A program made the translations under genes and the position numbers. This document shows positions 21,946-60,972 of a DNA stretch of 64,000 nucleotides, in pieces. How positions within the stretch are numbered: position 1 is the stretch's first letter; the number at the start of each line of letters is the position of its first letter. The DNA is taken from NCBI GenBank assembly GCA_002897675.1, contig BDSU01000045.1, positions 23,282-87,281 on the forward strand. Direction: 5' to 3'. The stretch comes from a bacterium BMS3Abin02. Its GTDB lineage: Bacteria; Actinomycetota; Acidimicrobiia; Spongiisociales; UBA4744. The notes beneath the pieces were generated by a model, which had not been told where the DNA came from, did no database searches, and saw only the letters and a program-made list of their open reading frames with translations.

Positions 21946-22049
21946 CGCTTCCCTTTCTGTATCACCTGGAGGACCGTGCGGTCACTCCGTGTGGATCAAC
22001 CCGGGAAACCCGGGATAGTTTGCCATTGTTTGCATTATCGCATTTTCTG

Positions 22050-32868: not shown

Positions 32869-33125
32869 GGGCTTCCTCTCGGGAGTATCCGGAAGCACGA
32901 TCGCGTACCGGCCTTAACGGCACGTGAAGGGAGCATGAGAATGTGATGAGAATGAGATGGGGTCGTTGTGAAGAGAGGCAGCGATCCGTACCGGGTAGAT
33001 CGCGGGCCATCTTCCGTCGGTCTCCGAGGACGCGCCTCGTCCTGCTGCATCACTCCCGGGCTCGAAAGCACCCGGCCCCAGATGGGGCCGGGTGCTTCTG
33101 TTCGGCTGGTAGGGAAGGTGTGCGG

Positions 33126-34250
33126 CTAGTTGCCGGCCAGATCCAGGAATGCCAACGGGCTGACAGGCGGCGCCTGGAAACGCACGTACCCGTGACCGGT
33201 CATACCGTGGCAGGCGTTGCAGGCTGCTATCGCAGAAGCGTAGGAAGTCTCGAACGCTGCCTTGTCCTTGGCGTTGATCGCGTCGACCACGGCCTGAAGT
33301 GGGCCCTGCTCGAAGGTCTTGAGCAAATCGGCATTGGCGGGCCGGGTTGTCTCTCCGACTTCCTGGTACTCGACAGCTTCCTTGATCTGGTATGCGGCGT
33401 GATCCCAGTTGCCGGCGTCGACTGCCAGCTTTGCGAGCGCGAACCGCTGACCATACTCCATCATGATCGTGCCGAGACCCGGCTGGATGTTCCACAGTGT
33501 CAGACCGCGATCGATGTTGTTCATCCGATCGGTGATCATCGCCTTGGCGTCATCCAAGGTCGGAGTTCCTTCCGGTGCGGTCCATGGCGCCAGTTCGTGA
33601 GAGCCTTCCGGTCCTGGTGCGGCCGATTCACTGGCAGCGGCGACGAGGAACGCCTGCGGGCTGGTGGTCGGCGTCTGGAACCGCACGTAGGCGTGTCCGG
33701 TGCCGACGTGGCACTGGTTGCAGCCGGTGACGGCCGCTTCGTAGGCACTGTCGAACGCGGACTTGTCCATCGCCACGATCGCGTCTGTGACCGGGTCCAG
33801 GTATGTGTGCTCGAAGGACGCAAGTAGTTCGGCCTTGCCGGGTCGTGTCGCTTCTCCGACTTCCTGGATCTCGATCTGCTCCTTCAACTGGTACTGGGCC
33901 ATACCCCAGTCGCCGGCGTCGGCAGCTTGCTTCGTCATCGCGAAGCGCTTTCCGTACTCGATCATCACGGTGCCGAGACCTGGCTGGATGTCCCAGAGGG
34001 TCAGATCACGGTTGGACGTGTTGAACGTGTCCATGATGAGCTGCTGAACTTGCAGCGCGGTGACGCCCTCGACAGGCGCCGCCGTCGTGGTGGGCGCGGC
34101 CGCGGTGGTGGGCGCCGCCGTCGTCGTGGGCGCCGCCGTCGTCGTGGGCGCCGTCGTCGTCGTCGTCGTGGTTCCCGTGTTGGTGCAAGCAGCGACCGTT
34201 AGTGCGAGGGCAAGTATCAGTGATGCTATCCCAATGGGTTTCTTCCTCAT
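33126..34250 (-). CDS. lipoprotein with two tandem helical CXXCH (c-type haem-binding motif) domains, cytochrome c'-like
   Basis: Lipobox LALALTVAAC then a Thr/Ala/Pro linker. Two ~150-aa repeats, each ending in CXXCH (GCNQCHVGTGHAYVRFQ and ACNACHGMTGHGYVRFQ) and each preceded by ...LTLWDIQPGLGTVMIEYGKRFA... / ...LTLWNIQPGLGTIMMEYGQRFA.... Confidence 0.55.
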   Translation of the reverse strand: MRKKPIGIASLILALALTVAACTNTGTTTTTTTAPTTTAAPTTTAAPTTAAAPTTTAAPVEGVTALQVQQLIMDTFNTSNRDLTLWDIQPGLGTVMIEYGKRFAMTKQAADAGDWGMAQYQLKEQIEIQEVGEATRPGKAELLASFEHTYLDPVTDAIVAMDKSAFDSAYEAAVTGCNQCHVGTGHAYVRFQTPTTSPQAFLVAAASESAAPGPEGSHELAPWTAPEGTPTLDDAKAMITDRMNNIDRGLTLWNIQPGLGTIMMEYGQRFALAKLAVDAGNWDHAAYQIKEAVEYQEVGETTRPANADLLKTFEQGPLQAVVDAINAKDKAAFETSYASAIAACNACHGMTGHGYVRFQAPPVSPLAFLDLAGN

Positions 34251-34558
34251 GATCCGCTCCCTCCGTGGTGGTATTAGGATCATAGTGAGATTGTATTGCA
34301 CGGCATAATGGTGTTCAGGGCATGGGGTCTCTTTATGGTTGATGCACGTTCATCCCTATTGTTCGTGCATGGTGACTGTGACTGTCCACTCCTACCGATT
34401 GCTACCCAGCATCCATTCATGTCCCCATGGTTGATGCAGACATATGGCGTTGCATTATCAGAGTTATTGCAGATATGCTTATGACCATCTGCACTTCCAC
34501 TGCACCAGGGCCAAAAGACCCTATATGGATGTGACAAAAGTCCCTTCTTATGTCCAAT

Positions 34559-36253
34559 TCAGTCCGGGACTTCGCTGGGCAGAGGGAACCAGCGCATGGC
34601 TTCTGCGGAGGGTGACAGCCTGATCGGCTCACCATCGAACGGTACCGGGGACTGCCCGAGGATCCGACGCGCCGCAGACAGATAGGTCGGAAGGCGATCG
34701 AGGGATTCGACCAGTCGACGCTTCGGGTAGGTCATCGCCGCTCCCTCGTAGGCAATATCGGCAAGTGCCATCGGAGGCGTGCCGGTCTCCGCCCGATGCC
34801 GCCACACGGCTGTTGCAGGGTCGACGTTGTACCGGCTCAGGACGCGCCAACCGCCGTTGGCGATGAGGTGCACTGCCTCGACGATGTAGGAAAACTCTTC
34901 CTCTGCGATGAAATAGTTGAAGTTCACACGAGCCCATCCCGGCTTGATGACCTCGCAGCCGTCCTCGACTTCCATCTCGAGTCGCCGACTCATCTCGCTG
35001 TCGATACCGAGGAGACGATGTCCGTACGGTCCTGCGCAGGAACAACCGCCACGCGCCTGGATGCCGAAGAGATCGTTCAGGAGTGCAACGACGTAGTTGT
35101 GATGGAGCCACCTGTCATCCCCGAAACGCTCCGGGGCGCGCAGCTCGAACGACACGATCGAGAGTCGATCGGCGTCGGGGTTGCCGAGGATGCGGATGTT
35201 TGGATCGCTCCGCCACGAATCGATTGCCCGACGGATGAACGCGGATTCGCGGCGCCGGATCTCGTCGGGTCCGACCGTCTCCTTGAGTTGGAACACGAGT
35301 CCGGCTCTGATCGACTCGATGATCGCCGGTGTGCCGCCTTCCTCACGGTGCTCCTGGTCGCGGAGGTAGTGATGCTCGAACGAGCTCACGTAGCTGACCG
35401 TTCCTCCGCCCGGTACCGACGGAACCCGGTTGTGGAGGAGGTCGCGACGTACAGCGAGCACGCCGGGAGTCTGTGGCCCGCCGATGAACTTGTGTGGAGA
35501 GACGAACACGGCGTCTTTGTAGTCGTCACCGTGGGTGTTCGGGGATCGGAGCTCGACCGCGACGTAGGGTGCCGCAGCCGCGAAATCCCAAAACGACAAG
35601 GCACCGTGACGGTGCAGCAACGACGAGACCGCCGAGGCGTCGGTGATGATGCCTGTGACGTTGGAGGCAGCGGAGAAACTGCCGATCCGCAGGGGACGGT
35701 CCCTGTATTCGACGAGCATTGTTTCGAGGTGTCCGAGGTCGACGTGGCCGTCGTCGTCTTCACGGATCTCGACAACGTCGGCGATCGATTCGAGCCAGGG
35801 GAGTTCGTTGGAATGATGCTCATACGGGCCGACGAAGACGACTGGCCTGTCCTTTGACGGAATATGGTCTGTGAGATGGTGGCGCTCGTCGAGCTCGGCC
35901 GGGATTCTGATGCCCAGGATTGTGGTCAGCTTGTCGATCGCTCCGGTCGACCCCGACCCACAGAAGATGACGGCGTGCTCATCGTCGTTGCCGCCGAGGC
36001 ATCGCTTGATGATCGATCTCGCCTCTTCGCGGAATCGAGTTGTCTGAAGTCCGGTTCCGGACGTCTCGGTATGGGTATTGGCGTAGAAGGGCAAGACCAC
36101 ATCGCGGATGTAGCTCTCGATGAACGACAGCGGCTTCCCCGAGGCCGTGTAGTCGGCATAGGTGACCCGCCGGGGGCCGAACGGACCGTCGATCGCCGTA
36201 TCGGCGCCGACTACAGAAGAGCGAATCAACTCGATGAGGTCTTCGGTTGCCAT
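34559..36253 (-). CDS. PLP-dependent aminotransferase class V family protein (cysteine desulfurase/epimerase-like fold)
   Basis: ANTHTETSGTG...FCGSGSTGAIDKL...SFSAASNVTGIITD...VFVSPHKFIGGPQTPGVLAVR matches the class V fold including the PLP-Lys region (SPHKF). Start at MATEDLIELI. Confidence 0.75.
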   Translation of the reverse strand: MATEDLIELIRSSVVGADTAIDGPFGPRRVTYADYTASGKPLSFIESYIRDVVLPFYANTHTETSGTGLQTTRFREEARSIIKRCLGGNDDEHAVIFCGSGSTGAIDKLTTILGIRIPAELDERHHLTDHIPSKDRPVVFVGPYEHHSNELPWLESIADVVEIREDDDGHVDLGHLETMLVEYRDRPLRIGSFSAASNVTGIITDASAVSSLLHRHGALSFWDFAAAAPYVAVELRSPNTHGDDYKDAVFVSPHKFIGGPQTPGVLAVRRDLLHNRVPSVPGGGTVSYVSSFEHHYLRDQEHREEGGTPAIIESIRAGLVFQLKETVGPDEIRRRESAFIRRAIDSWRSDPNIRILGNPDADRLSIVSFELRAPERFGDDRWLHHNYVVALLNDLFGIQARGGCSCAGPYGHRLLGIDSEMSRRLEMEVEDGCEVIKPGWARVNFNYFIAEEEFSYIVEAVHLIANGGWRVLSRYNVDPATAVWRHRAETGTPPMALADIAYEGAAMTYPKRRLVESLDRLPTYLSAARRILGQSPVPFDGEPIRLSPSAEAMRWFPLPSEVPD

Positions 36254-60594: not shown

Positions 60595-60822
60595 TCAGTG
60601 TCCTGCGAGCAGGTCGCTGCGCCTCGCTTCGAGCTCGAGTGCGTCGATCTCCCCGCGGGCGAATCTGGCCTCGAGGATGTCGAGGGCCCGGTCACGAGAA
60701 CTCCTCACGTTCTCCGGCCTCGAGCCTGCACTCCGAGCGACCCAGACGATTCCCCAGAGGATCGCTCCCCAGAACAAGACCATCCAAAGACCTCCGAACC
60801 ATCCTCCAAATGACCACATCAT
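60595..60822 (-). CDS. SHOCT-domain small membrane protein
   Basis: Two TM helices then SHOCT (ALDILEARFARGEIDALELEARRSDLL). Confidence 0.5.
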   Translation of the reverse strand: MMWSFGGWFGGLWMVLFWGAILWGIVWVARSAGSRPENVRSSRDRALDILEARFARGEIDALELEARRSDLLAGH

Positions 60823-60972
60823 GATGTTCTCCTTGCTCTCGATACGATCAGTACATCAGAGGAAGATGAACGGTCTACGCACGCCCGTGTAAAGCTTCTG
60901 CAACGGTCGACAGCATCTTGCAACAGGTTTGCAATAAGCTGCTGTTCGGGAGACGCCAACAGGAGAAGGGTC

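Follow-up and report, generated by a model that had tools for sequence, protein, structure and literature searches.

Class II cytochromes c are known almost entirely as soluble, single-domain proteobacterial proteins. The cytochromes c' are soluble single-domain homodimers that hold a five-coordinate, high-spin haem, with a non-ligating hydrophobic residue on its distal face. Cytochrome b562 of Escherichia coli binds haem non-covalently through the axial pair Met7 and His102, which lie at one end of the bundle. Because monoderm bacteria have no enclosed periplasm, c-type cytochromes may be tethered there; in Bacillus subtilis, a lipid anchor and a flexible linker keep the lipoprotein cytochrome c551 (CccB) on the outer face of the membrane, and tethered cytochromes of this kind consist of class I single-haem domains. 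The solved structure closest to the protein described here, at 11% identity, is NaxLS (Kusta0087/Kusta0088) of the anammox organism Kuenenia stuttgartiensis (PDB 6r6m, 6r6n and 6r6o), a soluble heterodimer of two separate chains that is described as NO-binding (PMC11897245).

The gene analysed here lies in a 64-kb stretch of DNA (the window) from the Acidimicrobiia bacterium BMS3Abin02. In contrast to NaxLS, the cytochromes c' and CccB, its product is a single, predicted lipid-anchored chain in which two class II-type bundles are fused in tandem. We favour, with moderate confidence, the reading that it is an extracytoplasmic, lipid-anchored di-haem c-type cytochrome, a Met/His-ligated electron shuttle expressed as its own conditionally controlled unit. 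For the window alone the outcome is modest, a probable tethered electron carrier behind an unusually AT-rich, repeat-bearing presumed promoter region; the gene also leads to a separate class II branch that databases label "hypothetical".

Architecture of the tandem lipoprotein

The ORF list places the reading frame at 33126..34301 on the minus strand, beginning at an upstream GTG (34301). The ATG at 34250 is the likelier start codon, since GGAGGGAG (34264-34257) lies ahead of it at a spacing of 6 nt and the translation from this ATG begins with a canonical lipoprotein signal peptide. The gene and the segments of its product are:

33126..34250, minus strand: cytochrome lipoprotein gene, 374 aa, stop codon included (ORF list, GGAGGGAG ahead of the start, homologues)
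34185..34250, minus strand: signal peptide with lipobox MRKKPIGIASLILALALTVAAC, residues 1-22 (read from the translation)
34074..34184, minus strand: Thr/Ala/Pro-rich flexible tether, residues 23-59 (translation; pLDDT <50 in the full-length model)
33651..34073, minus strand: predicted haem domain 1, residues ~60-200, a four-helix bundle with an N-terminal extension
33579..33650, minus strand: inter-domain linker, residues ~201-224 (pLDDT <50, without secondary structure)
33129..33578, minus strand: predicted haem domain 2, residues ~225-374

Read from the translation, the signal peptide ends in MRKKPIGIASLILALALT-VAAC, which conforms to the lipobox pattern [LVI][ASTVI][GAS]C and would make Cys22 the lipidation site. 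At this position relatives have a lipobox, an ordinary signal peptide or an SLH anchor, and together with the lipobox of the window protein these argue for an extracytoplasmic location. After export and lipidation of Cys22, the tether of ~37 residues would hold both bundles at the outer face of the membrane, the same arrangement as in CccB, in a host cell that probably has no outer membrane.

In the full-length structure model, the helices of domain 1 span residues 92-111, 115-135, 137-159 and 163-183; domain 2 was modelled with a pLDDT of 90.9. The domains are 56% identical over 143 aa (E 5e-60) and carry the motifs CNQCH and CNACH, respectively. The initial annotation had described two helical CxxCH domains in tandem on a lipoprotein tether, a description that the repeats, the lipobox and the T/A/P linker all bear out. 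Domain 1 is chimeric with respect to domains 1 and 2 of a three-domain Acidimicrobiia relative (L011), and the two-domain form is probably derived, by collapse, from the three-domain form, which is the commoner one. Signs of past recombination between the repeats are visible in the coding region.

The domain family and its predicted haem site

The window protein has 137 homologues at E<=1e-3, and the domain recurs, as one to three repeats per protein, in ~630 clusters at 50% identity from bacteria and archaea, spread over many bacterial phyla and several archaeal lineages. By sequence, no curated family covers it: it has neither a Pfam or NCBIfam model nor a solved structure. The kinship with cytochromes c' proposed by the initial annotation proves partial. 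When the family profile was compared with the PDB, the top matches were cytochromes c' and NaxLS (E 0.02-0.1, over helices 3-4 only), with the CxxCH of the family aligned to that of cytochrome c'. The Pfam profile to which the annotation had pointed, Cytochrom_C_2 (PF01322), scores 18.3 bits against a gathering threshold of 26.5, and the match is confined to profile positions 88-117; among relatives, 26 of 85 match it at E<=0.01 (best 3.3e-5), and single-domain members reach 14-16 bits or give no score. Both results count against the electron-carrier reading as well.

Helices 1-2 have no detectable sequence similarity to cytochromes c' and other class II proteins, and relative to NaxLS there is an additional N-terminal segment with a conserved LWxIQPGLGT and an invariant Met. 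Cytochromes c556 and b562 give no significant sequence match to the family; the conserved helix 2-3 junction EIQEVGETTRP and the N-terminal motif have no counterpart in them, and b562 differs further in its non-covalent haem binding. The models show the up-down four-helix bundle of class II, with one CxxCH per domain near the C terminus, at the end of helix 4. The domain most likely represents a distinct, uncurated and widespread branch of class II cytochromes c, marked by the invariant Met, by a haem-site spacing fixed rigidly at 88 residues and by one to three domains on tethers. The residues concerned are:

33708..33722, minus strand: domain 1 motif CNQCH (Cys177-His181) for attachment of haem c (translation; conservation)
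33207..33221, minus strand: domain 2 motif CNACH (Cys344-His348) for attachment of haem c (translation; conservation)
33963..33965, minus strand: codon of Met96 (motif IQPGLGTVM), which would be the distal haem ligand in domain 1 (invariant in alignment A1)
33462..33464, minus strand: codon of Met263, which would be the distal haem ligand in domain 2 (invariant; M56 in the numbering of alignment A2)

The motif CNQCH (177-181) falls inside the modelled helix 163-183 and CNACH (344-348) inside helix 330-350. Each of the C, N, C and H positions of CNxCH is at least 90% conserved in the family alignments, and in 277 of 278 domains exactly 88 residues separate QPGxGT from CxxCH. Across 85 diverse family members (alignment A2), a single column is invariant, the Met with which helix 1 starts. 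Met96 and His181, and likewise Met263 and His348, are present, conserved and 85 residues apart, and the models, though haem-free, place the Met at the N-terminal end of helix 1, the bundle end that it shares with the CxxCH His. An invariant Met at the haem end of the bundle favours Met/His ligation over a vacant sixth position and points to a low-spin, six-coordinate haem of the c556/b562 kind rather than the five-coordinate, gas-binding haem of cytochromes c'. Most likely, each domain would carry one covalent haem c, attached through CNxCH at the end of helix 4 and ligated axially by the CxxCH His and the invariant Met.

The initial annotation offered a different reading, a duplicated cytochrome c' proper whose five-coordinate haems bind or buffer NO and whose promoter is controlled by an NO- or redox-responsive repressor acting on the repeats. 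The class II fold with its C-terminal CxxCH, the weak Cytochrom_C_2 matches and the nearest structure, the NO-binding NaxLS (PMC11897245), are in its favour. The invariant Met, at a position where cytochromes c' have a non-ligating hydrophobic residue, and the sub-threshold PF01322 score speak against it and, with the upstream evidence given below, make it very unlikely.

Among Pfam models, PSII_Pbs31 gives the protein its best score (23.9 bits, with a cut-off of 25), and alignment A1 contains many invariant Glu residues. Both speak for a non-haem helical lipoprotein of the PsbQ/Psb31-like four-helix type, in which CxxCH would have another role such as metal binding or a disulfide. This is exceedingly improbable: CNxCH is at least 90% conserved and occupies the fixed place that it has in class II cytochromes c, where helix 4 ends; the protein is predicted to be exported, a requirement for haem c attachment; other cytochromes are fused to family members or share their operons; and the Psb31 match is itself below threshold. 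PsbQ/Psb31 proteins (PF18240), which work in the thylakoid lumen, lack both haem and CxxCH, and the resemblance is most likely one of fold only.

Gene neighbourhoods and the role of the protein

Two-component systems are the commonest neighbours of the family. Of 90 loci, 40 have a response regulator within 6 kb; in 19 it is within 700 nt, and no regulator lies at 4-6 kb. A sensor kinase is found near the cytochrome gene in 39 of the 90. The linked regulators come from at least six lineages and belong to two classes, GerE (21) and OmpR (18). In about half of the loci, two-component systems are absent from the 6 kb around the gene. Most of the linked kinases are membrane proteins, some of them (L079, L081) having only a short extracytoplasmic loop; in others (L026) the periplasmic loop itself contains two CxxCH motifs, and those of Chloroflexi have their own cytoplasmic GAF sensor domains. 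In the window, a divergent OmpR-type two-component system lies 2.1 kb upstream, behind another gene. Its kinase has only the catalytic core in common with cytochrome-linked kinases elsewhere, and its periplasmic domain has no similarity to theirs.

These neighbourhoods are what a haem-based extracytoplasmic sensor might predict, in which the protein would register redox state or a gas (O2, NO or CO) through a change in oxidation or displacement of the Met and signal to a sensor kinase as its accessory subunit. The regulator and kinase genes are concentrated right beside the cytochrome gene, kinases with a short extracytoplasmic loop are of a type that often needs an accessory sensor, and the CxxCH motifs in the periplasmic loops of some kinases (L026), the OmpR-type system of the window, the unusually high cross-phylum conservation of the family and the closest solved structure, NaxLS, described as NO-binding (PMC11897245), all fit. 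We nevertheless consider a sensor unlikely. Adjacency is explained equally well if the cytochrome gene is the regulator's target, about half of the loci manage without a two-component system nearby, the Chloroflexi kinases already have GAF domains, the periplasmic domain of the window kinase is unlike those of the linked kinases, and both operon position and domain fusions (see below) point to electron transfer. The broader proposal that the family is a new, ancient and horizontally widespread class of haem c sensor, the window protein being a tethered two-sensor version with the AT-rich TGCA promoter in a feedback circuit, is quite unlikely.

For the electron-carrier reading, which we prefer, the evidence comes from association with respiratory components. 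In six loci of Anaerolineaceae/Chloroflexota, a single-domain member lies 20 nt upstream of genes for a Rieske protein, a cytochrome b-cytochrome c fusion and a cytochrome c. Another member (L010) is encoded downstream of a molybdopterin/FeS/NrfD oxidoreductase, some members end in a class I cytochrome c domain, and a Tat-exported Mo-oxidoreductase/NrfD cluster lies 10 kb from the cytochrome gene in the window. From these associations we infer that the protein most likely carries electrons, and low-spin Met/His haems would suit electron transfer rather than ligand binding. It may act as a tethered shuttle between membrane respiratory complexes, in place of a soluble periplasmic cytochrome.

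Several observations weigh against this reading. No redox partner gene is adjacent to the cytochrome gene in the window, where its neighbours encode an aminotransferase and a MacB-type exporter. The OmpR-type system is 2.1 kb away and separated from it by another gene, with a kinase that resembles the linked ones in its core only. Moreover, identity between bacterial phyla and archaea is ~50-60%, above the norm for a simple shuttle, which hints at a more specific function or partner.

Genes of the branch recur beside two-component systems, and those of Anaerolineaceae head operons for Rieske protein and cytochrome b. Its definition would improve respiratory-chain annotation in uncultured Chloroflexota, Acidimicrobiia and Planctomycetota and in metal- or methane-cycling archaea, and would supply a candidate where the electron carrier of a bc-type complex is missing, as it is for some of them.

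The AT-rich upstream region and the proposed transcription unit

The DNA between the cytochrome gene and the aminotransferase gene contains the following features:

34251..34558, no strand assigned: AT-rich intergenic region, presumed promoter/regulatory, from the aminotransferase stop to the cytochrome start
34335..34346, plus strand: 12-mer ATGGTTGATGCA, copy 1 (TGCATCAACCAT on the gene strand)
34427..34438, plus strand: 12-mer ATGGTTGATGCA, copy 2, 92 nt from copy 1
34450..34459, plus strand: 10-mer TTGCATTATC, also at 22030-22039
34512..34545, plus strand: CAAAAGWCCCT twice (AGGGWCTTTTG on the gene strand), 23 nt apart, right after the stop of the upstream gene

At 47.4% GC, the 308-nt region (34251-34558) is the lowest window of that length in the 64 kb (z = -6.0). 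The initial annotation was thus close with ~48% GC, although the background it gave, ~68% GC, is measured at 63.5%. Upstream intergenic regions of the three closest relatives also fall below the GC of their own contigs, by 10 (L011), 8 (L012) and 3 points (L091), so part of the drop is generic. The intergenic stretch 60751-60950 is low in G+C too and has TTGCAA repeats.

As had been noted, the 12-mer ATGGTTGATGCA occurs exactly twice, at 34335 and 34427; the 64-kb window holds no further copy, even allowing one mismatch. When the region was shuffled 2000 times with its dinucleotides kept, 18 of the shuffles contained a direct repeat of at least 12 nt (p~0.01). TGCA occurs eight times in the 308 nt, against a shuffle mean of 2.8 (at least eight in 7 of 5000 shuffles, p~0.001), and its density there is the highest in the window. 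The copy of CAAAAGWCCCT at 34535-34545 makes GGGACTTTTGTCAC, one mismatch from a GGGAC-N4-GTCCC palindrome; DosR/NarL-type boxes are not conserved upstream of the family, similar boxes being present in only two other loci, about the chance level. The element TTGCATTATC, by which the annotation linked this region to a second promoter, is indeed present at both sites (the second one base from where it was placed), but of the ten-mers in the region 29 recur elsewhere in the window, and shuffled versions give 29.2 +/- 8.2, so the link carries no weight. Overall, the annotation is confirmed in part: the tandem CxxCH lipoprotein, the AT-rich region and the 12-mer repeat stand, whereas the 68% GC and the TTGCATTATC link do not.

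For the NO- or redox-responsive repressor of a cytochrome c' proper, the significant repeats are a favourable sign, as is GATGCA within the 12-mer, which resembles part of the NsrR half-site and serves as a lead only. Against it, none of the scanned window genes was seen to encode an NO-responsive regulator, of the Rrf2/NsrR type or any other, the 12-mers form a direct repeat with copies 92 nt apart rather than an operator-like palindrome, the repeats are absent upstream of the closest relatives, and the match at 22030, supposedly a second site, is due to chance. The adjacency of two-component systems, with activator-type regulators, agrees in spirit with the dedicated regulation that had been proposed, but not with a repressor.

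The region may also have no dedicated regulator, being an extreme ordinary promoter region or a relic of insertion or rearrangement, with repeats left over from duplication and a low G+C that may attract nucleoid-associated proteins non-specifically. This is possible but doubtful. It would fit the GC-poor upstream regions of relatives, the second low-G+C stretch with TTGCAA repeats, the recombination signs between the coding repeats, the post hoc nature of the repeat statistics (p only ~0.01) and the upstream sequence itself, which is not conserved in L011, L012 or L091, a point that also weighs against the regulatory part of the electron-carrier reading. On the other side stand the 16-point GC drop, extreme for the window at z = -6, a TGCA density reached by so few shuffles, and the family-wide linkage to regulators, which suggests conditional expression. 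Response-regulator linkage, the 12-mer repeat and the TGCA excess together support conditional control of the proposed electron carrier; such control is probable, and the family neighbourhoods suggest that it may be exerted by a response regulator.

Two further features bear on the extent of the unit:

34290..34317, minus strand: sigma-70-like promoter candidate TGAACA-16 nt-TACAAT (consensus scan, 9/12 matches)
33063..33097, minus strand: intrinsic-terminator-like hairpin, 30 nt past the cytochrome stop codon

The promoter candidate lies ~40 nt upstream of the cytochrome start codon and is weak evidence, the scan having found one site where 0.6 were expected. The leader appears unstructured, its fold being no better than that of shuffles (z = +0.53), and Rfam gave no relevant match at E<=10 in 33000-35000 and none at the gathering score across the window. 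Promoter-like site, unstructured leader and terminator together suggest that the cytochrome gene would form its own transcription unit, with a promoter inside the 308-nt AT-rich region, which carries repeated TGCA-core motifs, and a strong terminator. The hairpin has a perfect, G+C-rich stem of ~13 bp and the loop AUCU, followed by UUUCG, and the 91-nt stretch around it folds at -50.2 kcal/mol (z = -5.84), a stability equalled by none of 200 shuffles.

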